DNA from: Candidatus Eutrophomonas brisbanensis
GTDB taxonomy: Bacteria > Pseudomonadota > Gammaproteobacteria > Burkholderiales > Eutrophovitaceae
Length of the DNA: 64,000 nt
NCBI GenBank assembly: GCA_038141705.1
Contig: JAYQIQ010000004.1
Location: 120,539-184,538 of the forward strand
Direction: 5' to 3'
Shown here: piece by piece, positions 9,129 through 57,911 of the stretch
Numbering within the stretch: position 1 is the first letter of the stretch
Layout of the letters: every line of letters begins with the position of its first letter
The notes under the pieces: model-generated
Databases searched by the model: none
The model's input: only the letters and a program-made list of their open reading frames with translations
What the model was told of the DNA's origin: nothing
Position numbers and translations under genes: made by a program

Positions 9129-9146
9129 TTTTCTGGCTCAGCGAAA

Positions 9147-9716: not shown

Positions 9717-9733
9717 TCTCGAAAATCTCTCGA

Positions 9734-10216: not shown

Positions 10217-10224
10217 GACTCACT

Positions 10225-11463: not shown

Positions 11464-11486
11464 ATTTAATTCTTTAAAACAATTAA

Positions 11487-12785
11487 CTAAAAACTCGTGA
11501 GGGTACGAATATTTTCCTCAATCGATGGAAGGAGAGATTTAACTGGCAAATCATCCAGCACATCTCGTGCAAATGCATAATTAAGCAAATTTCGAGCTGT
11601 CCTATCATCGATACCGCGAGCCTTAAGATAGAAGAGCTCTTCGTCATTGACTTGACCAATAGTCGCCCCGTGCGCACATTTGACATCATCTGCAAAAATC
11701 TCAAGCTCTGGCTTTGCATCGATTGAAGCGCGATTTGAGAGAAGCAAACTGCGACTTTGTTGAGCAGCATCCGTGCCCTGTGCATCTTTAAAAACTTTTA
11801 TTTTTCCGTTGAATACAACCCGTGCTTGATCTGCCGCAATATTTTTATGTGTTTGGCGCGAGGAAGTATGGGCCTCAGCGTGGTAAAGGGTCGAGTGGGT
11901 ATCCGATACTCTGCCCTTATCACATAGCGCTAAGCCCTTCAGGTCCGCATGCGCCCCATTACCAGACAAATAAACATGGGGATTTTGACGCGACAATTTC
12001 GCCCCACAACTGATCGACCAATTTCTATATGTCCCAGATCGTTCAATATTTACAAATGAATTACTGATATAAAAGGAATCAAGATCTTCGCGTTGGAGCT
12101 GGACGTGATTTAGCCTCGCATTTTCTCTAACAAATAGCTCGGCAACATTGTTCGTAAAATAGCGATACCCTCCGATATTTAGGCTATCTTCAATAAGGGT
12201 CGCCTCTACCCCTTCCCCACAATCAAAAAGAATTCGAGGGCATGAAAATACATCCTTCTTCGTATTAACATTTAAAACTTGTATCACTCGCTTCGAGGCT
12301 GATTCGCCAGTCGCAGTAACCAAGATAATGTCTCGTGCACCTGATGTATTTAACGCCGAGAAACCATCTCCAAACTTGTCCTCTAAACTTCCAAGCAACC
12401 CTTTACCCAAACTAACTTGAATGCCGGTGGCGTCAGAGCTGGTGTTTGAGAGAATTGAAAACTCTTTGGAACTAAGTGTGCTTGAGTATTTCTCCGAAAA
12501 AATACCGTCGACGGTTACGACAAAGTCAGTAGCCTCAGGCAATCGAAAAGACTGCAAAATTTGTTCGTCGATTTGTTGGCTCTCACTAACCGATGATAGA
12601 TTCAATCCGTATAGGCTGCGCAAATCTGTATATCGCCAGGACTCATCGGTCGTTATAGGTAGAGCACCGGGAGTCAATTTACGTAATGCTTGATCTCTAA
12701 TAGTACGTAATATCGGCGCTTCAGATGAATGCCGATCGGTTTTTGAGAGCATTGAAGCTAAAAATTTATCCGCAATATCTCTCAT
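11487..12785 (-). CDS. sufD: Fe-S cluster assembly protein SufD
   Basis: 432 aa. The C-terminus has LEIFADDVKCAHGATIGQ and FYLKARGI, typical of SufD. It sits between sufC and sufS. Confidence 0.85.
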   Translation of the reverse strand: MRDIADKFLASMLSKTDRHSSEAPILRTIRDQALRKLTPGALPITTDESWRYTDLRSLYGLNLSSVSESQQIDEQILQSFRLPEATDFVVTVDGIFSEKYSSTLSSKEFSILSNTSSDATGIQVSLGKGLLGSLEDKFGDGFSALNTSGARDIILVTATGESASKRVIQVLNVNTKKDVFSCPRILFDCGEGVEATLIEDSLNIGGYRYFTNNVAELFVRENARLNHVQLQREDLDSFYISNSFVNIERSGTYRNWSISCGAKLSRQNPHVYLSGNGAHADLKGLALCDKGRVSDTHSTLYHAEAHTSSRQTHKNIAADQARVVFNGKIKVFKDAQGTDAAQQSRSLLLSNRASIDAKPELEIFADDVKCAHGATIGQVNDEELFYLKARGIDDRTARNLLNYAFARDVLDDLPVKSLLPSIEENIRTLTSF

Positions 12786-13564
12786 GCGGCTTTCGCTTTG
12801 TATTCGTCGACGACCCAGTCATAACCTTTGGACTCGAGTTCTAAAGCTAGCTCTTTAGTACCGGTCTTTATGATTTTTCCACCCTCCATGACATGGATAA
12901 AATCGGGTTCAATATAGTTTAGCAAGCGTTGATAATGGGTAACCAAAACAATGGCATCGTCGTCACCATGTATTGAGTTAACACCATTCGCTACGATACG
13001 CAAAGCGTCAATATCTAATCCAGAGTCTGTTTCATCTAGGATTGCCAACTTCGGCTCGAGGATCGCCATTTGAAGGATTTCATTTCGCTTTTTCTCTCCT
13101 CCGGAGAAACCTTCATTTAAGCTGCGATCGAGGAAACCCGCATCCATCTTTAGAAGCCTCAATTTCTCTTGGATAAAGTCATCGAACTCAAGGGGATCTA
13201 ACTCATCTCCTCCTCTCGCAGCTTGTATGCTGTTAAAGGCAAGTCTCAAAAATGCCCCGTTAGTAACTCCAGGAACTTCTATCGGGTACTGAAACCCCAA
13301 AAATATTCCTTTTTTAGACCTTTCCTCAGGAGCTAACTCAATTAGATCTTCACCAAGAAACTCTAGCTTACCGTCGGTGACAGCATAACTTGGGTGCCCT
13401 GCAATGACTTTAGAAAAAGTACTCTTACCAGAGCCATTTTTTCCCATAATCGCGTGGATTTCTCCAGCCCGCACGCAGAGGTCTAAGCCTTTTAGAATAG
13501 ACGTTCCGTTGATCTCCGCCTTCAGACCCCTCGCCTCTAAAATAATTTTATTCTCGTCACTCAT
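12782..13564 (-). CDS. sufC: Fe-S cluster assembly ATPase SufC
   Basis: 260 aa with Walker A GKNGSGKST, the ABC signature FSGGEKKR and Walker B ILDETDSGLD. Confidence 0.95.
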   Translation of the reverse strand: MSDENKIILEARGLKAEINGTSILKGLDLCVRAGEIHAIMGKNGSGKSTFSKVIAGHPSYAVTDGKLEFLGEDLIELAPEERSKKGIFLGFQYPIEVPGVTNGAFLRLAFNSIQAARGGDELDPLEFDDFIQEKLRLLKMDAGFLDRSLNEGFSGGEKKRNEILQMAILEPKLAILDETDSGLDIDALRIVANGVNSIHGDDDAIVLVTHYQRLLNYIEPDFIHVMEGGKIIKTGTKELALELESKGYDWVVDEYKAKAA

Positions 13565-19533: not shown

Positions 19534-22096
19534 GTGACTCCAGAACGCGAAAAACACACTCCAATGATGCGCCAATACTTGGGCATAAAAGCGGAGCACA
19601 AAGACAAGTTGTTGTTTTACCGGATGGGGGATTTTTACGAACTATTCTTTAATGATGCAGAGGAAGCGTCGAGGCTTTTAGATATAACTCTAACATCTAG
19701 AGGAAACTCAGCCGGAGAACCCGTTAAGATGGCCGGTATTCCACATCATGCTGCCGAGCAATATCTTTCAAAGTTACTCAAATCCGGAAAATCTGTCGCG
19801 ATCTGTGAGCAGGTCGGAGATGTCTCCGCATCCAAAGGTCCTGTTGAACGAAAAGTCACTCGTATTGTCACCCCAGGAACACTTACAGAAGCCTCTTTAC
19901 TAAACGGTAGAGAGGAGAATATCCTTCTCACCTGCCATATAAGCGAAGAAACATGTGGTTATGCATGGTTATCAATCGCAAGTGGTACCTTTAAAATTCT
20001 GCAGACAGCTTATCGAGACATCTCTGATGAAATTCAAAGAATAAGACCCCGGGAAATTATCGTAAGCGACAAATTTCCGATTGAAAAGTTAAATACGTTG
20101 AATATCCCAATAAATCGCATTGAAAGTTGGCATTACGATTACGACGTAGCTAGAAAAACCCTAGAGGACCACTTTAACGTCAAGAGCCTAAAGTCGTTTG
20201 GATGTGAAGAGCTACATGTAGGAATATCTGCGGCCGGTGCCCTACTCGAGATATGCTCAAAATACCCAAGGTCAAAAACTCAATCATGTTAAAAATATTT
20301 CATCTGAATCAAATGAGGATTGCCTTCAACTTGATCACACGACGAGAAAAAACCTAGAAATTAACGAGACTCTCTCTGGCGAACGATCTCCATCACCTCT
20401 CTCCACGATAGACAACTGCACCTCGCACATGGGCAGTCGATGGTTATCGCACGCAATAAACCACCCATTAAGAAATCACGACGCGATCCGATCACGGCAA
20501 GACTTGATCTCGTGGATGATTGATCCAGATAATCGACGCAGAAGCCAGAGCATTAGAGACTTGATACGAGGCATCTCGGACATTGAAAGAATAAACACAC
20601 GAGTTGCCATGGGCTCAGCAAGACCGCGAGACCTATCGGCACTTCGTGATTCAGTCACGCTTCTGCCGGATCTTCGGGTCGCCCTAACGGGCTGCGACAT
20701 TGGGCTCGCAAAACAAGTCCTCAGCGATCTTAATTGCGATCCAATTCTGAGTGATTACCTTAAAACCGCCATTCTTCCGGAGCCAGCGAGTATCATTGTT
20801 GATGGCGGCGTTATCAACAATGGGTTTGATGAGGAACTAGACAAGCTTCGAGAACTACAGCACAACCATGGCGCCTTCCTCCTCGAACTCGAGGAAAAAG
20901 AACGGGAGCGAACCGGGATCTCAAACTTAAAAGTCGAATTCAATCGAGTCCATGGTTTCTACATTGAGGTTTCAAAACTTAATACAAAAGCGATTCCCGA
21001 GGACTATAGAAGGCGGCAAACGCTCAAGAACGTAGAGCGCTATATTACACCTGAACTAAAAGAGTTCGAGGACAAGGCTCTATCAGCGAAAGATCGCGCC
21101 CTCAGCAGAGAAAAACTTTTGTACGCTCAAGTTCTCGAAGAGGTCAATAGGTTCTATGACATCCTCAAAAAAGCGGCACAGGCTATTGCGATTTTGGATG
21201 CGCTAAGAAGTCTCGCCGAGTTAGCGCAAAGAAACAACTACACGAAACCCACTTTCACCAACGATTTATCAATTCGTATTGAGAAGGGAAGACATCCAGT
21301 TGTAGAAAACTCCCTGACGACATTCGTCCCAAACGATACTGCCCTGAACGATGAAACAAGAATGTTAGTGATAACTGGGCCAAATATGGGCGGCAAGTCA
21401 ACTTATATGAGACAAAATGCACTCATAGTTTTATTGGCTCATATCGGGAGCTTTGTTCCTTGCGAGAGTGCATCCATTGGACGAGTGGACCGCATATTTA
21501 CTCGTATCGGAGCATCAGATAATTTATCTTTAGGACAATCGACTTTTATGGTTGAAATGTCCGAAACGGCAAACATTCTCCATAATGCAACCGAGAAAAG
21601 TTTAGTGTTAATGGATGAGGTTGGGCGCGGCACATCAACCTCCGACGGATTAGCTCTAGCAACATCCATTGCTCGACAACTCATTGAGATTAATAAAAGC
21701 TACTGCCTATTTGCTACACATTACTTTGAACTTACTGAGTTGTCAGATCATCACCCATCGGCGCGAAATGTGCACGTATCTGCAATTGAGCATGACGATA
21801 GGATTGTGTTCTTACACAACGTGCTGGATGGCCCGGCATCCCAAAGCTACGGCATAGAGGTCGCAAAATTAGCAGGGTTACCCAGACAAGTGATTGAAGC
21901 TGCAAAATTAGAGCTCCAACAAATTTGGAGAAATAATGAGCGCTCAAATATTCAACCACATCTTTTTGACAAAAGTAATCAAGAAACCCGGGACAGATTA
22001 AAGGAAAAAATTTCGGTTATTGAACCCGATCAACTGAGTCCCAAGGATGCTTTAGAAATTATCTACGAGTTAAAAAAAATCTCAACGGACATCTAA
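19534..22096 (+). pseudogene. mutS: DNA mismatch repair protein MutS; frameshifted about 240 codons in
   Basis: ORF 19534..20292 ([15 protein letters not shown].., GDFYELFF) and ORF 20237..22096 (Walker A GPNMGGKSTYMRQ, MDEVGRGTST) lie in different frames. They join as [17 protein letters not shown] if one base near 20251 is removed. Confidence 0.9.
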
Positions 22097-25699: not shown

Positions 25700-27679
25700 T
25701 CAAGAACTGATGGCTACCTGATTTGGCGCCGACCTCCTCTTGGACCGGTACTTTTTATCAGAAATCGCCAATAGACCACCAAGCGCCATCAAGAACGCCC
25801 CTCCCCAAATCCAGTCAACAAATGGTTTTAAGTAAACCCTAACGACCCAGGAGCCATCCTCTAACGCCTCACCAAGGGAAACGTAGAGATCTCTAAATAA
25901 TCCTGTATCTATCGCGGCTTCAGTCATTGGCATACGCTGAACATGATAAAAACGCTTCTCAGGATAAAGAGTAGACACAAGCTTTCCATCATCACCATGA
26001 ACAAAAACCGTCCCCTTGACCCCATTGTAATTTGGACCAATTAGGTCATCCAATGAGGCCAGACTAAATCTGTAACCGCTCAACTCGACAGACCCCCCTA
26101 CCGCGAGTTTTACGTCACGCTCCTCCTCATAGCCCTTTACTAGGGTGACGCCAAAAATGAAAACTGCCACACCTAGGTGAGCAACGAGCATTCCATAGTA
26201 AGACCTAGGCAGAGAATTAATAACTTGAAAAATAGTTCTCTCAGATCCCATTCTCAGTCTTCGGATCTGCTCGAGTAGATTCACGAGACCCGACACCACA
26301 ATCCAGAAACCCAGCAACAAGCCAATCGATACAAATACCGACCAACTACCCATCACCATCGGAACAATAATTGCCGAAACAAGCGAAATCGCAAAAGCCC
26401 ACTTGAGCTTTGTTGCAAGCTCTAAAGTTTTAGCATTCTTCCAACGCAATACCGGTCCAATACCCATCAGAAACATGGCTGGCGCCATCAGCGGAAAAAA
26501 AATGGCATCAAAGTAAGGGGGGCCCACCGATATCTTACCTAGTCCCATCGCATCTAAAAAAAGTGGATATAACGTACCAAGTAGGACCGATGCCGCAGCG
26601 ACCACCAAAAGCACATTGTTTGCCAATAAAGCCGATTCTCGCGAGATAAAGTTGAAGTTTCCACCCAATCCCACTTTAGGTGCTCGCCAAGCAAATAAGA
26701 GCAGAGACGCCCCTATCACTACAATTAAGAACCCTAGGATAAATACACCTCTCTCTGGATCCGTAGCGAATGCATGGACCGACGTCAACACCCCTGAACG
26801 AACAAGAAAGGTTCCAAGTAACGAAAGCGAAAAAGTAATTATCGATAGCAGCACGGTCCAAATTTTGAAACTTCCGCGTTTTTCTGTCACAGATAATGAA
26901 TGAATCAGCGCAGTTCCACACAGCCACGGCATGAAAGATGCATTCTCTACTGGGTCCCAAAACCACCAACCACCCCAGCCTAGTTCGTAATACGCCCACC
27001 AACTACCTAACGCAATACCAACAGTTAAGAAACACCAAGCCGCTGTTGTCCAAGGGCGCGACCATCGAGCCCAGGTCGAGTCGAGTTTTCCGCTAATCAA
27101 AGCCCCAATCGCAAATGCAAAAACTACCGAAAAACCCACATAGCCCATATAAAGCATTGGCGGGTGTATCACAATCCCCGGATCTTGTAACAACGGATTT
27201 AAATCCCGCCCATCGGCTGCTGGCGGCAGCAATCTATCGAACGGGTTGGAAGTCAGTAGCATGAATAAATAAAAACCAATCGCAATTGCCGACATCACAC
27301 CCAAAATTAGGGAGCGCATCTCATCTGGCATTTGCTTACTAAATAAAGAGACCGCCGACATCCAACCGCTAAGCATTAGCACCCATAAGAGCAAAGACCC
27401 CTCGTGGCTTCCCCAACTCGCCGCAAGCTTATAGGGCCAAGGCAATTGGCTATTGGAGTTGGATGCGACATTTAAGACAGAAAAATCATCGACCAAAAAA
27501 GAGGTCGCGAGACAACAAAAACCCGCCAGCGTAAGCAAGAAAATTACGTAGGAGCTATACCTCGGGAAAGCAATCAGGCGAGAACTCGAACGAACCGCCC
27601 CTCCGAAACAGATTAACGTCTGCGCAATGGAGACCCAGAGTGCAAGGATGATTAAAAAGTGCCCTATTTCTGGGATCAA
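25700..27679 (-). CDS. ccmF: Cytochrome c heme lyase subunit CcmF
   Basis: 659 aa polytopic membrane protein with the WWxWDPVENASFMPW tryptophan-rich motif. Confidence 0.95.
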   Translation of the reverse strand: MIPEIGHFLIILALWVSIAQTLICFGGAVRSSSRLIAFPRYSSYVIFLLTLAGFCCLATSFLVDDFSVLNVASNSNSQLPWPYKLAASWGSHEGSLLLWVLMLSGWMSAVSLFSKQMPDEMRSLILGVMSAIAIGFYLFMLLTSNPFDRLLPPAADGRDLNPLLQDPGIVIHPPMLYMGYVGFSVVFAFAIGALISGKLDSTWARWSRPWTTAAWCFLTVGIALGSWWAYYELGWGGWWFWDPVENASFMPWLCGTALIHSLSVTEKRGSFKIWTVLLSIITFSLSLLGTFLVRSGVLTSVHAFATDPERGVFILGFLIVVIGASLLLFAWRAPKVGLGGNFNFISRESALLANNVLLVVAAASVLLGTLYPLFLDAMGLGKISVGPPYFDAIFFPLMAPAMFLMGIGPVLRWKNAKTLELATKLKWAFAISLVSAIIVPMVMGSWSVFVSIGLLLGFWIVVSGLVNLLEQIRRLRMGSERTIFQVINSLPRSYYGMLVAHLGVAVFIFGVTLVKGYEEERDVKLAVGGSVELSGYRFSLASLDDLIGPNYNGVKGTVFVHGDDGKLVSTLYPEKRFYHVQRMPMTEAAIDTGLFRDLYVSLGEALEDGSWVVRVYLKPFVDWIWGGAFLMALGGLLAISDKKYRSKRRSAPNQVAISS

Positions 27680-45838: not shown

Positions 45839-47053
45839 TCAGGTATTCGAGTTCAATTTCGATTGTGTACCGGATTCTACGACTCGTTCAAAAACGTTTG
45901 CGTCACCAAATCCCCCAGCTTTCGTAATTAAGGTCAATTCACGACCACAGTACTCAAAACTTGAAACCGGAATGCCGGGCATCAAATTTCCGTGCAGGGC
46001 AATTACACTCGCCCCTGCTTCGCGAAGTATAGCGAGCGCGGTATCCCCACCGGTCGCAAACACCGCATCGACTCCAGATGCTCCAACTATTTTTAAAGCT
46101 GACTGAGCTAGCGCACTCGCAACAGCGCTAGAGCCCTTCTCCACCTCACCCTTCGAGGCAGCAAGCACCAGGGCTCGTTCGATAGCTAGATGTACCTCCG
46201 AATAAACCCCATTGGGCGCATAAACAACAGCGCCTGTAAATTTTTTGGAAAACTCGTCGATCTGTAAACTAGCACGCTCTGATCTAGAACCAACCACAAA
46301 CAAGAATCGATCAACCTTCTTCCGACTCCGCTCTACCGTCTGATTCTCACCTAGCAGTCTCGCCAGCTGTGATCCAACCCCAGATGAGCCTACCAAGATA
46401 TTAAGCTTTGGATGTTTAACAAAAAATTCTGCAGCTCTCTGTAAATCCGAATTGTTTTCCGAGTCAAAAATAAACGCCGTGCTTGACCTTGACTTGGGGG
46501 TCACTCCTTCTCCCGCTGGAATCAAAACCACGTGCTCGAAAATTGAATTTTCGAATATTTCCGTTAACAATTGCGACGGGGCTGGACTTAGAGCATCACG
46601 AACAAATTGTGTTTGGCCCAGTGGCACATTATCCACCAACACTTCACCACCTCGAACCGTTCGGCCTTGCTCTGGGAAAGCAGGCGCAAAACAGAGACTC
46701 GAAGCGGAAAAATACGATGCAGCAGCAGCGCTTTCCACCACAACATTCCCACGCATCGTGGAGTCTATTTTTTTAAAAATAAAACTAAAACTTCCAGAAT
46801 CGATTTGTCTGAGGCAGCTTTCCAACCTCGACACAGCGTCTGATGGAGATAGATGACGTGATTCGGTGTTTATCGCGAGAACCTCGGCGTCCTCGATATC
46901 GACCTTATCAGGAAATGCGTCTGGGTCGACGATGGCCTTCACCCGAAAACCGTGGTCACAAAAAGGTCCCGCAGCGTCCAGAGTCCCAGTCAGGTCATCA
47001 GCAATGATCAGGATCCTACGAATACCAGAGGCGATCTCGCTAACCGCCACCAC
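45839..47053 (-). CDS. Four-carbon acid-sugar kinase family protein (DUF1537; DtnK/DenK/OtnK type)
   Basis: 404 aa with the N-terminal [16 protein letters not shown] hallmark. It overlaps the upstream pdxA-family gene by 14 nt. Confidence 0.8.
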
Positions 47054-48023
47054 CAGCTACCATTTTTAGCGCATAAGAAATCGCAGCCTTCATATTTGTA
47101 TTGTTTGCTATCCCCTTCCAAGCAATATCAAAGGCCGTCCCATGATCGACTGATGTTCTATAAATCGGCAAACCCAGGCTCACATTCACGGTTTCATCAA
47201 AGGCAATTAACTTGGTCGGGATATGACCTTGATCATGATATTGAGCAACAACCAAATCAAATTCCCCCTTGAGGGCTCGATAAAACACCGTATCACCTGA
47301 AATAGGTCCAACGGCATCGATACCTTCAGCTCTCGCAAGCTCAATCGCCGGGGCAATACGATCTGACTCCTCGGTCCCAAACAAACCGCCCTCTCCACAA
47401 TGTGGGTTTAGACCCGCAACAGCGATACGTGGTTTTGAGACACCAATTTTTTTGAAGTGCTCATTTCCAATTCGGATTGTATCCAAGACACGTTGTGTAC
47501 TTGGGCGCTCAGCTGCGTTTTTGAGTGATGTATGAGTTGTCACATGAATCGCGCTAAGTTTTGGACCAGCCAAGAGCATGAATGAAGACTTGGCACCGGT
47601 TAGATGCGCGAGAAGCTCGGTATGCCCATCATATTTGTGTCCCGCCATGTGCATCGCCGCCTTATTCAAAGGCGCCGTCACTATCACGGATATATCACCA
47701 TCCAAATTCAACTGTACGGCTTTCTCAACATACCGGTAAGCTGCCTCACCACTAGCAGCGGTAACCTGTCCGTCCACAATATCCGACTCGCCAGTAGTTT
47801 CAACATATGCGACTGGCACCACTCCATTTTTTACATCTAGATTTTCCTCGAAGACTAACTTTGCGCCGAGTAAATCATTTGCCCTTTCTAGGCGCGGGAG
47901 ATTTCCGATAACCACTGAATTGCTGCGATCACGCTCAGACATCTCAAGAAGGGTCTTAACGATAATTTCTGGGCCTATCCCTGCAGGATCCCCCATCGTG
48001 ATGCCGATTCGTTTCGATCTCAA
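47040..48023 (-). CDS. pdxA2: PdxA-family NAD-dependent dehydrogenase (PdxA2-type 4-phospho-tetronate dehydrogenase, decarboxylating)
   Basis: 327 aa with [27 protein letters not shown] and [12 protein letters not shown] blocks. It is paired with a DUF1537 kinase. Confidence 0.8.
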
Positions 48024-48065
48024 CGTATTCTTCCTTTTTTTATTGATGAATTGAGGCGTGAACCA

Positions 48066-48993
48066 TTAAAACGGATTGTTCGCCGCCAGCGCCTCAAGTT
48101 TTTCCGATGAACATGCGATCCGAACCTCAGATCCCCTCGCTAGATCACCTCCGCACTTCTCGATAATCTCGGCAGCTTGCTCTACCAACTGAAGGATTTG
48201 TACGCTCACAACCAAATCTCGCATCTTCAAGCCCCACTCGAATATGACCTCCTTCCGCGATCACTCTTGGAATCAACGGCATGATATCCACATCGAGTCC
48301 GGATGCCATCCAGTTACAGCCCGGAGCCACCTTATCTAGTAAGTTTAAATACGCTGTCAGGCTGAAGTCCTCCGGCGGAAAACCGAAAGTGAATCCAGAG
48401 CTAAACATCAATCGATAGATCGGATCAGGAGTACTCTCCCTCCAATGTAAACTCGCTCCTAATCGAATAAACCCGGGTTCATAAATTGCATAGCTTGGGT
48501 GTATGCCGTACTGCCTTGCTATAGACAACCCATGCCTGACATCTGCTTCATGATTGAGGTAAACGTAACCCGGCCTATCCTCTTTTAGCTGGTCGTAGTG
48601 CGTGATGTTGCATGAGCCTGGGTCCAGAACAGTCCACTCCACGAGACCATCCTTCGCTAGTTCCTCGATGTGCGCATAACGATCGACAGCACTACTGCCC
48701 TCGGCGATTCGATTCATTCCGGGAGCAGGCACGGTCGGATACACAATCGCATCCACTTTAGATCGGATCTCAGTAATAATTTTTTTATAAGTTTCCGCAT
48801 CATCTTTTTGTTGGCCAGTGCTCTCGTCATACGCGTGAATGTGTACGATCGCCGCACCAGCTTTTACACAGTCGATCCCTTGACGCACGATCTCTTCAAC
48901 AGAAACTGGAATACCAGGCTGCTTTGTTCGCGTCCAAGGCCCGTTGAGCCCAACCTCTAACCATGTCTTTTGAGTTACGTCTATCATCATCAA
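48066..48993 (-). pseudogene. Beta-keto acid cleavage enzyme family (BKACE / DUF849); C-terminal frameshift
   Basis: Track ORF 48145..48993 (..AAIVHIHAYDE.., GGHIRVGLEDA) ends in unrelated sequence. The alternative frame reads LQLVEQAAEIIEKCGGDLARGSEVRIACSSEKLEALAANNPF* (stop 48066-48068). The switch is near 48194-48195. Confidence 0.8.
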
Positions 48994-49009
48994 CCTTTAA
49001 TTTACTTAT

Positions 49010-49708
49010 TTACTCAGAACCAACGATATCAACCTGCAGACCAGGAAATCCCTCCACGGTTGCAATAAGCCTATCGCCTGGATTTACTGCTCCAACCCCC
49101 GCTGGGGTCCCCGTAAAAATTAAGTCTCCTGGTTGAAGCGTATAAAAATTAGAGAGAATCGAAATAATCTCGGGTATCGACCAAATCATATCTTTTAGGT
49201 CGCCACGCTGACGGATCTCACCATTCAAGCTCAACGAAATGGCTCCCGCGTTTGGATGCTTTTCACCCGCACGCACCGGTTGAATCGAGCTGATGGGCGC
49301 AGACTGCTCGAAGGACTTGCCAAAATCCCAAGGTCGGCTCAAGCGCTTCGCATCCGCCTGAAGGTCCCGCCTCGTGAGATCGATTCCTACTGCATAACCA
49401 AAAACACATTCGAACGCATCTGCGACTTCGATCGATCGACCACCCTTCCCTAGGGCCACAACCAACTCGACCTCGTGATGCAAATCTTCGGTCGAGGGCG
49501 GATATATAACCCTCCCTCCCTCGGGCACGAGCGAGTCTAGAGACTTCAAAAAGAAAAATGGCGGTTCGCGATCGGGATCGTTGCCCATCTCCCGAGCATG
49601 CTCAGCATAATTACGGCCTACGCAGAATATTCGATGCGCGGGAAATACATCGCGCGACCCAACGACGGGCAGCACGGGTTTTGGAATTTGAGAAAAAACA
49701 AAGTTCAT
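49010..49708 (-). CDS. Fumarylacetoacetate hydrolase (FAH) family protein
   Basis: 232 aa with CVGRNYAEHAREMG, HHEVELVV and GDLIFTGTPAGVG blocks. Confidence 0.85.
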   Translation of the reverse strand: MNFVFSQIPKPVLPVVGSRDVFPAHRIFCVGRNYAEHAREMGNDPDREPPFFFLKSLDSLVPEGGRVIYPPSTEDLHHEVELVVALGKGGRSIEVADAFECVFGYAVGIDLTRRDLQADAKRLSRPWDFGKSFEQSAPISSIQPVRAGEKHPNAGAISLSLNGEIRQRGDLKDMIWSIPEIISILSNFYTLQPGDLIFTGTPAGVGAVNPGDRLIATVEGFPGLQVDIVGSE

Positions 49709-49836: not shown

Positions 49837-50166
49837 TTAGTCCAAGCCGAAATTATTTAGTCTTTTGACCCAAACATTACTTTTGGGTACCGCGCGACAT
49901 GTAAGTATGGCGCCGTCGTTACGCTCTTCCGTTGACAAAGCACTCGGGCTATAAACCATGAGATCGACTTCACCCGATAAAAGCTTGCATTTGCATTTTC
50001 CGCAATCGCCGCTCCGGCATTGATAGGCAAGCCGCATCCCGCGCCGCAAAATCGCCGTCAAGATGGTGTCGCCCGGACCCACTTCCACCGACATCACCTG
50101 ATCATCAATTTTTATTTCGTATACCAAAATTTTTTTGTATTGAAGAGTTATGTTCGAAGGTTCCAA
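49837..50166 (-). CDS. Plant-type [2Fe-2S] ferredoxin domain protein
   Basis: 109 aa with a TTG start. It carries C-x4-C-x2-C (CRSGDCGKCKC) plus the distal LTCRAV Cys. Confidence 0.75.
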   Translation of the reverse strand: MEPSNITLQYKKILVYEIKIDDQVMSVEVGPGDTILTAILRRGMRLAYQCRSGDCGKCKCKLLSGEVDLMVYSPSALSTEERNDGAILTCRAVPKSNVWVKRLNNFGLD

Positions 50167-50639: not shown

Positions 50640-52403
50640 ATGACACGTTGGACAAGCGTAGCTGCCGTTAAGGCAATTTCCGCTGTCGCCTTTGTCGGAT
50701 TCGCTTCTCAAGCTATCTCAGCAGATGTTAGCTGGGATCGTTTGTTAAACGCGCACAAAGACGATAACAACTGGATGATGTATCACAAAGACTTCACAGG
50801 TCATCACCACAGTGGTCTTAACCAAATCAACAAGGGCAATGTAAAGAACCTAAAACTTGCATGGCAGCACACACCTGCTTCTAGCAAGCGAGGTATCCAG
50901 TCATTCCCATTAGCTGTTGATGGGGTTGTTTACTACACAAGTTCTTCAGGAGCGATTCACGCTGTTGACGGAACAAACGGTTCGCTCATCTGGAGCCACA
51001 CGGCTAAGATCGACGTTGAGCGTGCTGAAGGAACGTTCTACAACCCATACAACCGTGGTCTTGCAATTGGTCATGGCAACGTTTACATGGGAACAACTGA
51101 CGGTCGCTTAATCGCACTTGATGCGAAGAGCGGTAAGGTTGTATTTGACAACGAAATTATGTCAGTAGCCAAAGGTAACAAGGGCTTCACCGGCGCTCCA
51201 ATGATCGTGAAAGACATGGTTGTTTTAGGTGCAAACGGTGGTGAGCTTTCAGGCTGCTGCGGACCAATCTACGCAGTTGATGCAAAGAAAGGTACCGTTC
51301 GTTGGCAATTTGACACCATTGGTGGCGATCAGCGATCACGTGATTCTTGGGGCAATGACTCCTGGAAAATCGGTGGTGGCGGCGGTTGGATGACTGGGCA
51401 CTATGACGCAAAGCAAAACACCCTATGGTGGGGTACTGCAAACCCAGCTCCTGACTACGACTACATTGGTGAAGACTGGATGAACAACGGTCCACGTCCT
51501 GGCCTTAACCTCTACAGCTCTTCTGTAGTGGTTCTTGATGCAGATTCTGGTGAGCTTTCAGCTTACTTCCAGGAAATGCCTCATGATGCATGGGACTTTG
51601 ACTCAGCCGTTGGTGAGTTCTTAATGGTCGAAGGCGGCGGCAAGCGAAACATGGTTCACCCAAACAAGGGCGGTATCATTTTCGTTTACGATGCTGACTC
51701 TGTTGGCGGCGGTAACGAGCTAGCTGTAAACAACGCCTACATGATTGGCGAGACTTACAACTACATCAAAGGTGTAACAAAAGACGGTCGATTAGTTGGA
51801 CGACGTGAGCTTCCAGAAGGCAAGCACATGGACGTATGTCCTGCAATTGACGGTTCGATTTCTTGGAACACCGGCGCATACAATCCAAAGTCTGGCACAC
51901 ACTTCATGGTCACTCAGGAATTCTGTTTCGACATCGAAGTTGTTAACCCAGAGCGTCCAGATGATTTCTCTGGACAAGCTTACTTCGGCGCTTCATGGAC
52001 CTCAAAAGGACCTAAGCAGAAAGTTGACGGAACTCCAGTTGACGCTGCATACGGTACGCTTCAGGCTCGTGAGCCACTCTCAGGCAAGCTTAAGTGGAGA
52101 GTTGAGTACAAGTACCCAGTACTTGCTTCACTACTCTCAACTGGCGGCGGACTTGTGTTCGTTCCAGGCGCTGACGGCATGTTTGATGCACGTGACGCTG
52201 ACACCGGTAAGCTTCTATGGCAAAACAACAACGGCCTAGGTCACCACGGTGGTGTTATCACCTACATGGCTGGTGGCAAGCAGTACGTTGCTGTTGTTAC
52301 AGGTTGGGGTTCACACGTTTCTGGTAACTTCCCAGGATTGTTTGGTCACCCATTTACCTCTATGCCAACCGACGCTGGTAACTTGATGGTGTTCTCACTC
52401 TAA
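50640..52403 (+). CDS. Periplasmic PQQ-dependent alcohol/methanol dehydrogenase family protein (8-bladed propeller), atypical subtype
   Basis: 587 aa with a signal peptide (..FASQAISA-DV). It aligns by eye to MxaF/XoxF/ExaA along its length (DDNNWMMY, NQINKGNVKNLKLAW, GTANPAP, PHDAWDFD, CPAIDG, KLLWQ). Confidence 0.9.
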   Translation: MTRWTSVAAVKAISAVAFVGFASQAISADVSWDRLLNAHKDDNNWMMYHKDFTGHHHSGLNQINKGNVKNLKLAWQHTPASSKRGIQSFPLAVDGVVYYTSSSGAIHAVDGTNGSLIWSHTAKIDVERAEGTFYNPYNRGLAIGHGNVYMGTTDGRLIALDAKSGKVVFDNEIMSVAKGNKGFTGAPMIVKDMVVLGANGGELSGCCGPIYAVDAKKGTVRWQFDTIGGDQRSRDSWGNDSWKIGGGGGWMTGHYDAKQNTLWWGTANPAPDYDYIGEDWMNNGPRPGLNLYSSSVVVLDADSGELSAYFQEMPHDAWDFDSAVGEFLMVEGGGKRNMVHPNKGGIIFVYDADSVGGGNELAVNNAYMIGETYNYIKGVTKDGRLVGRRELPEGKHMDVCPAIDGSISWNTGAYNPKSGTHFMVTQEFCFDIEVVNPERPDDFSGQAYFGASWTSKGPKQKVDGTPVDAAYGTLQAREPLSGKLKWRVEYKYPVLASLLSTGGGLVFVPGADGMFDARDADTGKLLWQNNNGLGHHGGVITYMAGGKQYVAVVTGWGSHVSGNFPGLFGHPFTSMPTDAGNLMVFSL

Positions 52404-52443: not shown

Positions 52444-52476
52444 AATTGGGCGGGATTTTCCCGCCCAATTTTTTTG
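52444..52476 (+). terminator. Rho-independent terminator after the PQQ dehydrogenase gene
   Basis: AATTGGGCGGG-ATTTT-CCCGCCCAATT followed by TTTTT. Confidence 0.7.
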
Positions 52477-52557: not shown

Positions 52558-52944
52558 ATGTATTTGTTTAGTTCACCAGCGAAGTTTACTCTTGGCTTTA
52601 CTACCACCATGTTTATCGCTTGCCTGGGCTTGTCCATCGCACATGCCGAAGAAGATGTAACAGAGATCGCAGCAGCGGAAATCAATGCCAAGTATCAGTC
52701 ACACAAAGAGAATTTTTCTGTGAAGCGATTATTCGCTTCCAGGTGCAGTTGGTGCCATCAGGGGTATGGACTCAAAGAGGCGGATGGACCAAGACTTTCG
52801 GGAATTGAAAAAACTAAGGAGCAAGTCGTCGAACAAATTATGTACGGTAAAAGCCCAATGCCTGGCTTTAGAAAGCAATTAAAAGAATGGCAGATAGAGG
52901 CACTTGCGGATTACATTAAAGCCCTACCGGATGTAGAGCTTTAA
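52558..52944 (+). CDS. Monoheme class I c-type cytochrome (candidate electron acceptor of the PQQ dehydrogenase, ExaB/XoxG-like role)
   Basis: 128 aa with a signal or anchor sequence, the heme motif CSWCH and a probable Met ligand in GKSPMPGF. Confidence 0.8.
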   Translation: MYLFSSPAKFTLGFTTTMFIACLGLSIAHAEEDVTEIAAAEINAKYQSHKENFSVKRLFASRCSWCHQGYGLKEADGPRLSGIEKTKEQVVEQIMYGKSPMPGFRKQLKEWQIEALADYIKALPDVEL

Positions 52945-52963: not shown

Positions 52964-52988
52964 AAAACGGCCCGAGTGGCCGTTTTTT
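52964..52988. terminator. Bidirectional rho-independent terminator
   Basis: AAAACGGCC-CGAGT-GGCCGTTTTTT between convergent genes. Confidence 0.7.
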
Positions 52989-53361
52989 ATTTCCGACTTA
53001 ATCGATATTTAATATCATCTCCGCCGTAGACGGCCTCGCCTTTAAGCCTTCCATCACCGATCAAAAACGCAAAACTCGAAAACTCATCCCCTACCTTACC
53101 CGTTGCGCTGAAATTGATCCGATTGCCGATTAATTTCAAGTACTCAAGCGGCATTTCGCTGTCACCAAATTTATCCAAATTTGTAAGACGCAAAGAACCT
53201 TGACCATCAGACCGGATGCTCAACCGAGCGGCGCCACTAGAGCCGCCGAGATACCAAGAGCCTTCCCAATCCCCGACGTACTTCGCAGGAACGTCAATTG
53301 CAAATGCATGAAATGCCAACAACAAACATACACTCATCAAAAATTTTTTAAAAAGTTTCAC
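52987..53361 (-). CDS. Hypothetical periplasmic protein
   Basis: 124 aa with a signal peptide (MKLFKKFLMSVCLLLAFHAFA). No recognisable family. Confidence 0.4.
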   Translation of the reverse strand: MKLFKKFLMSVCLLLAFHAFAIDVPAKYVGDWEGSWYLGGSSGAARLSIRSDGQGSLRLTNLDKFGDSEMPLEYLKLIGNRINFSATGKVGDEFSSFAFLIGDGRLKGEAVYGGDDIKYRLSRK

Positions 53362-54039: not shown

Positions 54040-55241
54040 TTACCAACCCGCTTCTTTCTCTGGCGAACTAGATACCTTATGGATTGCCAGGTCGGCCCCA
54101 ATAAACTCGTCCTCTTCGCTCATACGAATACCCACCATGCTCTTTAAGACACCATATACAATCGCCCCGCCTACGAGCGCCACGATAATTCCAGCGATCG
54201 TTCCAACCAACTGCGACATGAAGGAGACTCCACCTACACCTCCGAGCGACTCAAGACCGAAAATTCCAGCTGCAATCCCACCCCAAGCACCACACAAACC
54301 ATGCAGAGGCCATACACCCAAGACGTCGTCGATTTTCCAGCGATTCTGCGTGACAGTGAACATGTAGACAAAAAGACCACCAGCGATCGCCCCAGTGACT
54401 AAAGCCCCAAGCGGATGCATGATGTCTGATCCCGCGCAGACCGCAACCAAACCAGCAAGAGGGCCGTTGTGAACGAATCCAGGATCGTTACGGCCCACAA
54501 CTAAAGCGGCTAAGGTACCACCAATCATCGCCATTAAGGAATTCAGAGCAACAAGCCCGCTAATAGCTTCGATCGTTTGCGCCGACATCACGTTAAAACC
54601 AAACCAGCCAACTGTCAGCATCCAAGCACCGAGCGCTAGAAACGGAATACTGGATGGCGGATGCGAAGCGATTCCCCTTCCTTTCGGTAACGCCCTTTAC
54701 GAGCGCCAAGCAACATTACTGCCGATAAAGCAATCCAGCCGCCAACCCCATGAACAACAACCGATCCTGCAAAGTCTCGCATCGGCGAACCGAAAATTGC
54801 CTCAAGCCATTCCTGAAAACCAAAGTTTCCGTTCCAGATCATTCCCTCGAAAAATGGGTAAAGAACGCCCACAATAATGGCGCTCGCAAATAGCTGGGGA
54901 TAAAATTTGGCGCGCTCTGCTATACCACCCGAGATAATTGCCGGAATCGCTGCAGCGAACGTTAACAAGAAGAAAAACTTAACGAGACCGTACCCACCGT
55001 TCTCGGCAAGCACATTCGCACCCACCATAAATCCCGTTCCGTAAGCAACAATGTATCCAACAAAGAAATATGCAATAGTTGAAATAGAAAAATCACAAAG
55101 GATTTTAACGAGGGCGTTCACCTGGTTCTTCTTACGAACCGTTCCCACTTCAAGGAAGGCGAAACCTCCGTGCATCGCGAGCACCATGATCGCGCCGAGT
55201 AAAATAAATAGAACGTCAGACGACGAATTTACCGCATCCAT
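54040..55241 (-). pseudogene. amtB: Ammonium transporter (Amt family); frameshifted mid-gene
   Basis: ORF 54636..55241 is the N-terminal half and ORF 54040..54621 is the C-terminal half (..TVGWFGFN..). The alternative frame reads GIASHPPSSIPFLALGAWMLTVGWFGFN. The frames join if the C4 run at 54674-54677 were C5. Confidence 0.9.
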
Positions 55242-55435: not shown

Positions 55436-55882
55436 ATGGAGAAGAATATGAAACCCACGCTCGTAGAGGGTTTAAAACACACCCACCAATTTACTGTTTC
55501 GGAAAATAAGACCGTTCCCAATCTTTATCCCGAGTCAGACCTATTCCAAGATATGCCAAACGTCTTTGCGACGGGATTCATGGTCGGGCTTTTGGAATGG
55601 GGGTGCATTGAATTGATTAGGAACCACCTTGACTGGCCTCACGAGCAAACTCTCGGTATCCACGTTAATTTTTCACACTTATCCCCGACGCTCCCAGGCA
55701 TGACAGTCACTGTGGACTCCGAGCTTACAAAAATAGAGGGCAGAAAATTGACATTTAAAGTTCGCGCCCATGATGGCATTGATACCATTTCAGAGGGGAT
55801 CCATGAACGCGCGATCATCTCGCGCGAAAAATTCTTAGAAAAACTCGAGCAAAAAAACAGAAAATTACCTAACGCTACTTAG
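55436..55882 (+). CDS. Hotdog-fold thioesterase family protein (FlK-like)
   Basis: 148 aa with ..VFATGFMVGLLEWGCIE.. and ..GRKLTFKVRAHDG..ISEGIHERAII, typical of this thioesterase subfamily. Confidence 0.65.
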   Translation: MEKNMKPTLVEGLKHTHQFTVSENKTVPNLYPESDLFQDMPNVFATGFMVGLLEWGCIELIRNHLDWPHEQTLGIHVNFSHLSPTLPGMTVTVDSELTKIEGRKLTFKVRAHDGIDTISEGIHERAIISREKFLEKLEQKNRKLPNAT

Positions 55883-57053
55883 CTAGCTCCTTCATCGCTT
55901 TTTCCAGACCATCGATCGTGAGGGTATACATACGATCCCCCATTAAATCCTTGGTCATACGTATTGACTCGTGGTAGCGCCAACGATCCATTGGGGTCGG
56001 ATTAATCCAAGCGGATTTTTCATATGTTTTTAATAGTCGATCTATCCATACAGACCCTGCCTCCTCGTTGAAGTGCTCCACACTTCCTCCGGGGTAGGCG
56101 ATCTCATAGGGACTCATCGTTGCATCCCCAACAAATATAAGCTTGTAATCCGGACCATATTTATTGATGACTTGCATGGTCGGGATTCGCTCACTATTCC
56201 GGCGATAGTTATCTTTCCAAACGGACTCATACACAAAATTATGAAAGTAGAAATATTCTAAGTGCTTGAATTCTGACCTGGCAGCTGAAAACAACTCCTC
56301 ACAAACGCGCACATAGTCATCCATAGAGCCGCCCACATCTAAAAAGAGCAATACCTTCACGGCATTATGCTTCTCAGGAACCATCTTGATATCGAGATAT
56401 CCCGCGTTTCGTGCAGTCGATCGTATCGTGTCGTCTAGATCTAATTCATCTGCTGCCCCTTCTATCGCAAACCGACGCAATCGCTTCAATGCAACTTTAA
56501 TATTTCGTGTACCGATCTCGATACTGTCATCGAGATTACGAAATTCGCGTTTGTCCCAAACTTTGACGGCACGCCGATTACGCGAACCGTCCTGACCAAT
56601 CCGCACTCCTTCTGGGTTATATCCATAAGCACCAAATGGGCTTCGACCAGCCGTACCAATCCACTTGGAACCCCCTTGATGTCGTTTTTTTTGCTCTTCT
56701 AATCTCTTCTTGAGTGTCTCCATTAGCTTTTCCCAACCACCAAGGGAATCCACTAATTTTTTCTCTTCATCACTCAATTGAAGTTCCAATTGCTTGCGAA
56801 GCCATTCCTCAGGAATGCGGTCAAGGAAATCTGCAGGGATTGACTCTAGTCCATTGAAATAATCAGCAAAAACTTTATCGAATCGGTCGTAATGGGATTC
56901 ATCCTTCACGAGTGATGCCCTAGATAGGAAGTAAAAGTTATCTACCGTCTCGCTCGCTACCCTTTTATCAAGGGCCTCAACTAAAGTTAAGTACTCCTTA
57001 ATCGAAACTGGAATACCTCCCTCTTTTAATCGATAGAAGAAGTCAATCAACAT
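55875..57053 (-). CDS. VWA-domain protein (CoxE-like), partner of the adjacent MoxR ATPase
   Basis: 392 aa. The N-terminus is MLIDFFYRLKEGGIPVSIKEYL and the C-terminal VWA region has LFLDVGGSMD. Confidence 0.8.
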   Translation of the reverse strand: MLIDFFYRLKEGGIPVSIKEYLTLVEALDKRVASETVDNFYFLSRASLVKDESHYDRFDKVFADYFNGLESIPADFLDRIPEEWLRKQLELQLSDEEKKLVDSLGGWEKLMETLKKRLEEQKKRHQGGSKWIGTAGRSPFGAYGYNPEGVRIGQDGSRNRRAVKVWDKREFRNLDDSIEIGTRNIKVALKRLRRFAIEGAADELDLDDTIRSTARNAGYLDIKMVPEKHNAVKVLLFLDVGGSMDDYVRVCEELFSAARSEFKHLEYFYFHNFVYESVWKDNYRRNSERIPTMQVINKYGPDYKLIFVGDATMSPYEIAYPGGSVEHFNEEAGSVWIDRLLKTYEKSAWINPTPMDRWRYHESIRMTKDLMGDRMYTLTIDGLEKAMKELAK

Positions 57054-57062
57054 TTAACTAAC

Positions 57063-57911
57063 CTAGCTCGCACGCTTTGATAAAAATACGAGGCGCTCAA
57101 AAAGGTGTACGTCTTGCTCATTTTTTAGGAGCGCACCCGCAAGCGGCGGGATGGTTTTGCGGTTATCACTAGACTGCAACGCCTCAACCGGAATATCCTC
57201 TGACAACAAAAGTTTCAACCAATCAAGCAATTCAGAAGTTGATGGCTTTTTCTTTAATCCTGGTATTTCTCGAATATCAAAAAATACCTCCAGCGCCTGC
57301 TGTAACAACGCTTTTTTAACACCCGGAAAATGCACATCAACGATTTTTTTCATAGTTTCCCTATCTGGAAAACGGATGTAATGAAAAAAGCATCGACGCA
57401 AGAACGCATCTGGGAGATCTTTTTCATTGTTACTCGTGATGATAATAACGGGGCGCTTTTTAGCCTTTACGAGCTGCTTCGTTTCATACACATAAAATTC
57501 CATACGATCCAGCTCACGCAGCAAATCATTTGGAAATTCGATATCAGCTTTGTCAATCTCATCAATCAAAACTACCGCAGACTCATCTGAATCGAACGCC
57601 TCCCATAAAGGCCCTCGAACGATGTAATTCCCAATATCTTTGACTTTCTCATCACCGAGCTGAGAGTCCCGTAGCCTTGAGACCGCGTCGTACTCATAAA
57701 GACCTTGCTGTGCCTTTGAAGTCGACTTGATGTGCCACTGTACTAGTGGTCGCTCGAGCGCATCAGCAACTTCTAGCGCCAGCATGGTTTTACCCGTACC
57801 AGGCTCCCCCTTGATCAAAAGCGGCCTCTCGAGGGAGACGGCTGCGTTAACCGCCATCATGAGATCTTCTCCTGCTACATAATTACTCGTTCCCGTAAAT
57901 CTATCTGACAT
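57063..57911 (-). CDS. MoxR-family AAA+ ATPase
   Basis: 282 aa with Walker A GEPGTGKTMLA and Walker B VVLIDEIDKA. It shows the AAA_5-type architecture. Confidence 0.85.
   Translation of the reverse strand: MSDRFTGTSNYVAGEDLMMAVNAAVSLERPLLIKGEPGTGKTMLALEVADALERPLVQWHIKSTSKAQQGLYEYDAVSRLRDSQLGDEKVKDIGNYIVRGPLWEAFDSDESAVVLIDEIDKADIEFPNDLLRELDRMEFYVYETKQLVKAKKRPVIIITSNNEKDLPDAFLRRCFFHYIRFPDRETMKKIVDVHFPGVKKALLQQALEVFFDIREIPGLKKKPSTSELLDWLKLLLSEDIPVEALQSSDNRKTIPPLAGALLKNEQDVHLFERLVFLSKRAS

Follow-up and report, generated by a model that had tools for sequence, protein, structure and literature searches.

A clade of PQQ-type dehydrogenases without the canonical vicinal cysteines carries an invariant Cys-Cys pair next to the metal-ligand glutamate

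Introduction

Since the 1990s, quinoproteins that oxidise methanol and other alcohols have been recognised by a disulfide of two adjacent Cys residues, which forms an eight-membered ring over the pyrroloquinoline quinone (PQQ) cofactor. What this ring does is under debate, cofactor holding, protection of the semiquinone, and electron transfer to cytochrome all being considered. Here we describe a dehydrogenase gene in a 64,000-nucleotide stretch of the Candidatus Eutrophomonas brisbanensis genome (contig JAYQIQ010000004.1, positions 120,539 to 184,538 of the forward strand; hereafter the window, in which all positions are counted from the first letter). Its product and the close homologs, together referred to as the CC clade, lack the canonical Cys pair, carry a new Cys-Cys pair shortly after the metal-ligand Glu, and keep the ligand set of lanthanide-type enzymes.

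Among the described systems, a structural response to the cofactor is documented for MxaF, in which PQQ binding remodels exactly two segments, A100-D105 with the canonical ring and G175-V180 with the loop of Glu177; the latter also touches MxaI at the surface, and MxaJ is the chaperone that opens MxaF for PQQ insertion (PMC12276312). For SolV XoxF, the first shell in a quantum mechanics/molecular mechanics study consists of E55, R110, S169, E172, W238, N256, D299, D301, R326 and the C104-C105 pair (PMC13573614). The extra Asp of lanthanide enzymes, two residues after the catalytic Asp, serves as a diagnostic motif (PMC11996626), and it is reported to be essential for lanthanide coordination and function, as in XoxF and ExaF (bioRxiv 10.1101/2020.02.25.964783; PMC11996626).

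Results

A new Cys pair in the metal-ligand loop

The gene and the two loops with the motifs in question are listed below.

50640..52403, forward strand: dehydrogenase gene, an intact open reading frame (ORF) of 587 residues for a periplasmic eight-bladed PQQ-type dehydrogenase of the CC clade
51033-51068, forward strand: TFYNPYNRGLAI, residues 132-143, as read by script
51027..51062, forward strand: loop EGTFYNPYNRGL, residues 130-141, the D-A loop from blade 1 to blade 2, as judged from alignments, DSSP of the model, and conservation
51234..51266, forward strand: metal-ligand loop NGGELSGCCGP, residues 199-209, the B-C loop of blade 3, as judged from alignments and conservation

The protein was aligned by HMMER against all PDB sequences (1kb0, PedH 6zcv and MxaF 4tqo) and by MAFFT with the same three plus XoxF 4mae, and the two alignments agreed on the homology of the motif positions. 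No vicinal Cys pair was found five to six residues ahead of the Arg of NRG. In both alignments, the columns of the canonical pair were occupied by F133-Y134 (51036-51041), which bears out the first-pass annotation, made from the segment FYNPYNRG (51036-51059, residues 133-140). Its second observation, a Cys-Cys beside the metal-binding Glu, was equally correct: within GANGGELSGCCGPIY (residues 197-211), Cys206-Cys207 lie exactly at 51255-51260, four and five residues past E202, the metal ligand by alignment. The two residues align with the Val-Arg of the reference GVRG, S204 being an inserted residue, in both alignments; by MAFFT they correspond to V175/R176 of SolV XoxF, and the whole loop is equivalent to G175-V180 plus R181 of MxaF. 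As C206 aligns with V180 of MxaF, the new pair stands at the end of the PQQ-responsive loop. The protein contains four Cys residues, 206, 207, 400 and 429.

A search of 5.8 billion proteins gave 1619 matches at E<=1e-20, of which the best 120 were 54-89% identical to the query and included 114 full-length homologs (54-87% identity). All 114 lacked the canonical pair, had (G/A)CCGP after the Glu, and carried DFD; the columns of the canonical pair were filled by F, I or P at 133 and by a conserved Y134. Since C206, C207, G208 and P209 were invariant in the 114 homologs down to 54% identity, against a mean column identity of 70%, conservation of the motif is far above chance. This conservation, the intact catalytic and cofactor residues, and the conserved cytochrome partner described below leave hardly any room for the view that the Cys pair is a neutral lineage marker or the protein a non-catalytic propeller, even though relatives devoid of the ligands (P0184, P0188, P0194 and P0250) do occur in the superclade to which the clade belongs.

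When 1.84 billion representatives, clustered at 50% identity, were searched exhaustively by HMMER, 23,151 relatives were identified. The whole CC clade was contained in one representative (1203 bits), and the next match scored 499 bits. Of the 154 nearest representatives, 88 lack the canonical Cys-Cys and 122 carry D-x-D. Both had been put forward in the first-pass annotation as distinguishing marks, but each is common. In contrast, a Cys pair after the Glu was found, among the 150 nearest representatives, only in the CC clade, its fragment P0235, and the degenerate relative P0184. The new Cys pair is thus the only distinctive feature of the three; the other two are common in uncharacterised PQQ dehydrogenases.

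Cofactor and metal site

The residues of the cofactor and metal site were located as follows.

51387..51389, forward strand: W250, the Trp stacking under PQQ, aligned with W238 of SolV XoxF, invariant
51441..51443, forward strand: N268, the metal-ligand Asn, aligned with N256 of SolV XoxF, invariant
51594..51602, forward strand: D319, the catalytic and metal-binding Asp, followed by F320 and by D321, the extra Asp of lanthanide type; the triplet corresponds to D299-Y300-D301 of XoxF in the alignment and is invariant

R139 stands at the position of the PQQ-carboxylate Arg (NRG). Together with T184, W250, E202, N268, D319, D321 and K343, it aligned with the reference ligands, all eight being invariant or nearly so; the PQQ contacts (R139, T184 and W250), the catalytic Asp (D319), and the Glu and Asn ligands (E202 and N268) are accordingly all present. 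L495 stands in place of W467 of SolV XoxF. The extra Asp proposed by the first-pass annotation was found within WDFD (residues 318-321, exactly at 51591-51602), and D321 is homologous to the lanthanide-ligand Asp, its column being occupied by Asp in XoxF and PedH (DFD), Ala in MxaF (DYA), and Thr in 1kb0 (DYT). By MAFFT alignment, the residue before Glu202, G201, is also in the XoxF and PedH state, Gly, in contrast to the Ala of MxaF and 1kb0. Such a Gly in place of Ala was reportedly noted by Keltjens in 2014 as a mark of lanthanide-dependent quinoproteins. Because the four-ligand set includes the extra Asp and is accompanied by Gly before the Glu, the use of a lanthanide by this dehydrogenase appears probable.

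Fold and family placement

For the 587-residue protein, the AlphaFold2 model, made with 51 homologs as input, reached a predicted local distance difference test (pLDDT) score of 87.3 and a predicted template modelling (TM) score of 0.89. Foldseek matched it to 30 solved chains of PQQ propellers with TM scores of 0.72-0.83 (about 0.8 for MxaF, XoxF, PedH and type II alcohol dehydrogenases) and E values down to 1.6e-44, at 24-29% identity in the alignments to solved quinoprotein structures. Model and matches both indicate an eight-bladed beta-propeller. Two further features of the product are as follows.

50640..50723, forward strand: probable Sec signal peptide, about residues 1-25 to 1-28, with an approximate cleavage site between FASQAISA and DV
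51837..51926, forward strand: C400 (51837-51839) and C429 (51924-51926), a probable second, ordinary disulfide, by MAFFT against C380/C409 of SolV XoxF and against MxaF

The signal peptide is predicted because a hydrophobic N-terminus precedes small residues, the pLDDT of the model is below 50 over residues 1-26, and the homologs are all periplasmic enzymes. In the columns of C400 and C429, both invariant among the 114 homologs, Cys is also present in SolV XoxF and MxaF but not in PedH or 1kb0.

The superfamily is clear from Pfam PF01011 (207.8 bits, cut-off 26.7, E 4.1e-61). The score for NCBIfam TIGR03075, the PQQ-dependent dehydrogenase, methanol/ethanol family, was 389.7 bits, below the cut-off of 480.05, and the second-best profile match, TIGR04528 ('acido-empty-quinoprotein group A'), gave 255.1 bits against a cut-off of 650. 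Members of the clade carry in NCBI only the name 'PQQ-binding-like beta-propeller repeat protein'. The best scores against PDB sequences by HMMER were 241 bits for 1kb0, 216 for PedH and MxaF, 189 for XoxF (168-189 over all XoxF structures), and 124-154 for the group of sorbose and deoxynivalenol (DON) dehydrogenases; as a yardstick, the scores of XoxF itself are 352 bits with PedH and about 600 with MxaF. With PDB scores this low and an NCBIfam score below the cut-off, the protein is best placed as a deep separate branch outside every characterised group. A distinct subfamily had been anticipated by the first-pass annotation, and the single cluster at 50% identity, the low identity to solved structures, and the TIGR03075 score all agree with this.

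Individual known types were considered in turn. In the neighbour-joining tree described below, the protein was outside the clades of 1kb0, 6zcv, 4tqo and 4mae, and 4mae and 6zcv were at least eight nodes from the superclade, which places it neither within XoxF nor within type 2b. For MxaFI, D-Y-A and MxaI or mxa genes would be expected; the motif is DFD, and the neighbourhood contains neither an mxaI-like gene nor mxa genes. Unlike the type II quinohemoprotein alcohol dehydrogenases (ADHs), which have a cytochrome c domain fused at the C-terminus, the protein ends at residue 587 and contains no CxxCH. With respect to Keltjens 2014 types 1-9, the Bradyrhizobium accessions of the sister clade matched no reference accession in Table S3 of PMC8561711, in a comparison of accessions only. 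The searchable literature held no description of the post-Glu Cys pair or of the clade, though the superclade may be a named Keltjens type; recent papers on diversity do not discuss cysteines, and the wording 'type 9' was not found in a full-text literature search.

The Arg-type sister group and the history of the Cys pairs

The nearest relatives, at 44-51% identity, included many from Bradyrhizobium (e.g. WP_212372467.1 and WP_008960627.1) and others from Rokubacteria, Burkholderiales and elsewhere. In this sister group, hereafter called Arg-type, the canonical site reads QTHSPYNRG and the segment of the Glu reads GGEWPG-RGP; there is no Cys-Cys anywhere, and the column of C207 holds Arg. A neighbour-joining tree was constructed from 154 sequences and 522 columns with 200 bootstraps. 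The CC clade was monophyletic (80% bootstrap, 82% with P0184) and nested in a grade of Arg-type sequences; the four characterised references were eight to twelve nodes off, and the nearest outgroups were also without the canonical pair. As the CC clade nests among Arg-type sequences that have no Cys-Cys, it is probable, though not proven, that the canonical ring was lost in an ancestor and that the new pair was gained later, when one residue was inserted and an Arg was changed to Cys. The term 'relocated' used in the first-pass annotation would imply functional equivalence to the canonical ring, a possibility taken up in the Discussion; as to history, the tree indicates a loss and then a separate gain.

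Sixteen positions were fixed but different between the CC clade and the sister group. Ten of the 16 fall in residues 130-141, 173-187 and 199-209, which form adjacent loops on the top face, against a chance expectation of about one (hypergeometric, 4e-9). From the CC clade to the sister, these include 132T>Q, 134Y>H and 135N>S together with 203L>W, 206C>gap and 207C>R. This concentration in three neighbouring loops points to concerted remodelling of one side of the pocket, including the old Cys-Cys loop.

Both types were found in one genome, at separate loci and each with its own cytochrome, in OZ257154.1 (L012 and L023) and in CAWFVX01 (L022 and L071). Because they can occupy the same genome, the CC and Arg types represent distinct paralogs. 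In P0184 (L092, 1911-3629), CCGP is kept, while the Glu, the Asn, the catalytic Asp and the PQQ Arg are lost and no cytochrome gene adjoins.

As side observations on the superclade, P0184, P0188, P0194 and P0250 are long-branch relatives without Glu, Asn and catalytic Asp, and may be non-catalytic propellers. The best match in a plasmid search was a sister-clade gene on a plasmid assigned to 'Rhodococcus qingshengii' (L091, NZ_CP054209.1), where positions 8947-13192 carry the dehydrogenase, a cytochrome c, a MoxJ-like protein, and a truncated PqqU-like TonB-dependent receptor. The plasmid also carries TTT-family binding proteins. This content is of Gram-negative type on a plasmid assigned to a Gram-positive organism, and may reflect misassignment, contamination, or recent transfer.

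The partner cytochrome and the gene neighbourhood

Just downstream of the dehydrogenase gene lies the gene of its presumed electron acceptor.

52558..52944, forward strand: cytochrome c gene, for a 128-residue monoheme class I cytochrome with a signal peptide (Pfam PF13442 and PF00034)
52744-52758, forward strand: CSWCH of the cytochrome, residues 63-67
52858-52860, forward strand: axial Met101 of the cytochrome, in MPGF

In the PDB, this cytochrome was matched best by cytochromes c6 and c552, and even at E<=10 it showed no resemblance to XoxG, to cL or to the heme domain of quinohemoproteins. The partner is small, as the first-pass annotation had remarked in comparison with the cL/XoxG type, and unrelated to that type. 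Between the dehydrogenase stop and the cytochrome start there is a terminator-like hairpin (52444..52470, forward strand; 12-bp stem with 7 G-C pairs, and a T-run), which may reduce the expression of the cytochrome relative to that of the dehydrogenase. A gene for a CcmF/NrfE-family heme lyase at 25700-27679 (reverse strand) places system I cytochrome c maturation in the window and fits with periplasmic c-type cytochromes.

A homologous cytochrome c gene was located directly downstream on the same strand at 15 of 16 CC-clade loci and 47 of 58 Arg-type loci. In the Arg type, a gene for a MoxJ-like periplasmic binding protein followed the cytochrome at 50 of 52 loci, versus none of 15 in the CC clade (nominal Fisher p 4e-13, which is overstated since probably a single evolutionary event is concerned); it was also missing at 11 further CC-clade loci, the window included. 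This binding protein is related to the MoxJ/'quinoprotein dehydrogenase-associated' family, with TIGR03871 scores of 62-72 bits below the cut-off of 212. The Arg-type order of dehydrogenase, cytochrome and binding protein is the same as in xoxFGJ and pedEFG (PMC12997753). The cytochrome of the window is thus not of the XoxG, cL or c550 type, its matches being confined to c6/c552-type structures, and no partner gene of the XoxJ or PedG type lies near any CC-clade locus. A chaperone encoded elsewhere could act in trans for the CC clade.

The cytochrome gene was the only neighbour conserved across the CC clade, and gene context for this reason gives no clue to the substrate. Prediction of the substrate from the upstream PdxA, DUF1537-kinase, BKACE and FAA-hydrolase genes was rejected, as these are common only to close Burkholderiales relatives; other members of the clade adjoin unrelated genes for an ABC transporter, formate dehydrogenase, or dihydroxy-acid dehydratase. 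In the window this cluster, with a DUF1537-type acid-sugar kinase and a PdxA-family dehydrogenase, occupies 45839-49708 on the reverse strand, divergent from the dehydrogenase gene, and resembles the catabolic clusters for tetronates (threonate and erythronate).

Several other genes nearby were noted. A MoxR-like AAA+ ATPase gene and a VWA (CoxE-like) gene lie 3.5 kb downstream (55875-57911, reverse strand). The pair is kept in close relatives and missing at more distant CC-clade loci. Pairs of this kind insert metal into MxaFI methanol dehydrogenase (PMC12276312), and a link to the present dehydrogenase is possible. Convergent with the cytochrome gene, 52987-53361 (reverse strand) encodes a 124-residue protein that carries a signal peptide, matches nothing in Pfam or NCBIfam, and is kept at the related loci L001, L002 and L005. 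A stand-alone 2Fe-2S ferredoxin of 109 residues (49837-50166, reverse strand) resembles the N-terminal domain of the MmoC/BenC-type oxygenase reductases. At L088 (4598-5644), the locus of a 68%-identical relative with the same neighbourhood, a full Fer2-FAD-NAD reductase is encoded together with PaaA/PaaC-like and SDR genes, and the ferredoxin gene of the window may be a remnant of such a cluster.

Distribution of the CC clade and sequence quality

The CC clade is common in environmental assemblies, where it forms over 120 clusters at 90% identity, several of them containing hundreds of sequences, and the exact dehydrogenase protein was found in several NCBI genome bins. By a scan of one genome per species, the hosts were mainly uncultured freshwater Burkholderiales/Betaproteobacteria and some Alphaproteobacteria, and the record titles of related bins refer to bacteria of lakes, ponds, rivers, and glacier-fed streams. 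Among the members with a name are an Acidobacteriia bin and one cultured species, Paracraurococcus lichenis, which makes experiments feasible.

Compared with the genome-bin contig L001 (JAYNPT010000006.1), the window showed 98.0% identity and 16 gap openings. The indels, at 41793, 44534, 50368, 54678, 55850, 62382 and other sites between 40640 and 62402, were mostly one-base homopolymer differences (C6 vs C5, G6 vs G5, A8 vs A7). By such indels, nadE is broken (433-residue ORF in the window vs 557 residues in L001) and the ammonium transporter gene is split (54040-54621 and 54636-55241 in the window vs an intact protein of 400 residues in L001). These look like homopolymer sequencing errors and not real pseudogenes. 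The dehydrogenase gene is free of indels relative to L001. At another site, the 619-residue ORF at 20237-22096 matches MutS from residue 224 on, and the overlapping 252-residue ORF at 19534-20292 is probably its N-terminus after an apparent frameshift.

Discussion

Taken together, our reading, for which the case stands about evenly balanced, is that the protein is a probably lanthanide- and PQQ-dependent dehydrogenase, in which a C206-C207 vicinal disulfide braces the loop of Glu202 from the second shell. With the fold, the ligand conservation, the clade structure and the gene linkage as observed, PQQ would be held over W250, and a lanthanide ion would be bound through E202, N268, D319 and D321. 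A substrate of the alcohol, aldehyde or polyol type would be oxidised with D319 as the base, and the electrons would pass to the small c6-like cytochrome c encoded just downstream and then to the respiratory chain. At the edge of the pocket for PQQ and the metal, the vicinal disulfide would hold the loop of Glu202 in place, and it may be situated on the way to the cytochrome.

Several points weigh against this reading. The confidence of the model was moderate at the Cys-Cys loop (mean pLDDT 74 for residues 201-210), and the insertion of S204 could bring C206-C207 closer to PQQ than V175/R176 are in XoxF. Bootstrap support of the superclade was weak (46%) in a tree that is distance-based only, and P0184 is a single sequence. 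D-x-D alone is insufficient for lanthanide dependence; the membrane glucose dehydrogenase has it too, but functions with Ca, Mg or other metals (PMC11996626). No genes for PQQ synthesis, PQQ uptake or lanthanide uptake were found in that part of the window ORFs which was scanned, those ORFs being housekeeping genes.

The example of the glucose dehydrogenase, the lack of lanthanide-uptake genes in the scanned parts of the window, and the occurrence of D-x-D in 122 of the 154 nearest representatives, which makes the motif look ancestral and widespread, would also suit a Ca-dependent or metal-promiscuous enzyme that inherited the extra Asp as an ancestral state and not as a sign of obligate lanthanide use. 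This alternative deserves to be kept in mind but is the less probable one: the four lanthanide ligands and the lanthanide-type Gly201 are all invariant, and the biochemically tested enzymes of the methanol dehydrogenase (MDH)/ADH core with the extra Asp (XoxF, ExaF and PedH) are all lanthanide-dependent and require this Asp.

As C400/C429 match the MDH-type disulfide and the protein is periplasmic, C206 and C207 most likely form a vicinal disulfide with each other. Alternatively, they might be free thiols that serve as a redox switch or as soft-metal ligands and thereby change the chemistry of the site, for which their distance of only four and five residues from the metal ligand can be adduced. 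This is improbable, however, given the oxidising periplasm and the full set of oxygen ligands kept for a hard cation. Vicinal disulfides typically sit in a tight turn, with which the neighbouring Gly and Pro residues (G-C-C-G-P) are compatible, and this too speaks against free thiols. In favour of them, Chan 2021, as cited in PMC8561711, reported that MDH activity is modulated by the redox state of the canonical pair.

A more far-reaching possibility is functional relocation, in which the C206-C207 ring would contact PQQ from the blade-3 loop, hold the cofactor and mediate transfer, as a convergent re-invention of the canonical C103-C104 ring. In the model both loops lie on the top face of neighbouring blades; their MxaF counterparts, with the canonical Cys-Cys and with Glu177, are the two segments remodelled by PQQ and appear in one close-up of PMC12276312. 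The changes fixed in the clade are concentrated jointly in both loops and co-vary, and S204 lengthens the metal-ligand loop; in ExaA, efficient transfer to cytochrome c550 is reported to depend strictly on the canonical ring itself (Mennenga 2009, as cited in PMC12997753). Nevertheless, we consider relocation rather unlikely. The XoxF equivalents V175/R176 are not among the listed first-shell residues, F/I/P133 and the conserved Y134 in the canonical columns could themselves cover PQQ, the sister clade has no Cys-Cys at all and still relies on a homologous cytochrome, and P0184 retains CCGP without the catalytic residues. The position of the XoxF equivalents outside the first shell, the aromatic old columns with a conserved Tyr, and CCGP in the ligand-less P0184 are the grounds on which a brace from the second shell is favoured. 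The equivalent segment of MxaF, which responds to PQQ and touches MxaI at the surface, also counts in favour of a brace.

This locus is of value mainly as a natural test of what the disulfide ring does. It provides closely related natural variants, a ring-less clade with a dedicated cytochrome c and, nested within it, a clade with a new Cys pair. The loop of this pair is one of the two MxaF segments remodelled by PQQ, and presence or absence of the MoxJ-like gene matches the two types. It is conceivable, though doubtful at present, that the clade re-evolved a vicinal ring from a different propeller loop after the ancestral loss, and that the new ring contacts PQQ or gates electron transfer. 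If this is true, canonical ring, no ring, and new-site ring would make up a natural three-state series that could settle the function of the ring, and could show that the gain of a ring accompanies dispensing with an adjacent PQQ-insertion chaperone. With its lanthanide-type ligand set, the clade may also add to lanthanide-dependent carbon oxidation in fresh waters.

Comparison with known systems

The PQQ dehydrogenases without a vicinal disulfide, namely PsADH (4CVB), sorbose dehydrogenase (4MH1) and the DON dehydrogenases (7WMD and 22VI), share with the present protein the eight-bladed PQQ propeller, but they are much more distant (124-154 bits, 24% identity). Their metal ligands differ, and we know of none in this group with a Cys pair after the Glu ligand. 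For the Pseudogluconobacter PsADH, Rozeboom et al. in 2015 reportedly found no vicinal disulfide near PQQ and proposed direct transfer to cytochrome c.

The propeller of the type II quinohemoprotein ADHs (1KB0, 1KV9 and 1YIQ) includes the best sequence match among solved structures, 1kb0 (2.9e-70, 240.9 bits), and has the same Lys at the position of R326/R331. These enzymes differ in being of Ca type (DYT), in carrying the canonical Cys-Cys, and in the heme c domain fused at the C-terminus. The lanthanide methanol dehydrogenase XoxF (4MAE, 6DAM, 6OC5 and 7O6Z) shares the lanthanide ligand set with D-x-D, the Gly-Glu, and the second disulfide (C380-C409 in SolV), whereas it has the canonical C104-C105 ring, Arg at the position of K343, and XoxG and XoxJ as partners, and is distant in the tree; at the window locus the cytochrome is unlike XoxG or cL and no J-type gene adjoins.

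PedH/ExaF (type 2b, lanthanide-dependent ethanol dehydrogenases; 6ZCV and 6ZCW) resembles the protein in the eight-bladed propeller, the set of Glu, Asn, Asp and extra Asp, an identical WDFD, Gly before the Glu, Gln at the position of E55, and a separate soluble cytochrome c as acceptor. However, PedH scores only 216 bits at about 29% identity and is at least eight nodes away in the tree; it has the canonical Cys-Cys and no disulfide of the C400-C429 type, and its partners are the c550/cL-like cytochrome PedF and the MoxJ-like PedG.

Closest of all is the Arg-type sister group, which shares the absence of the canonical Cys-Cys, WDFD, the ligands, the C400/C429 pair, and the small cytochrome c encoded downstream. 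It differs in having T-H in the canonical columns, where the CC clade has F/I/P-Y, and a MoxJ-like gene after the cytochrome gene. Above all, its metal-ligand loop is one residue shorter and carries Arg, reading '...GGEWPG-RGP...' against the '...GGELSGCCGP...' that marks the CC clade.

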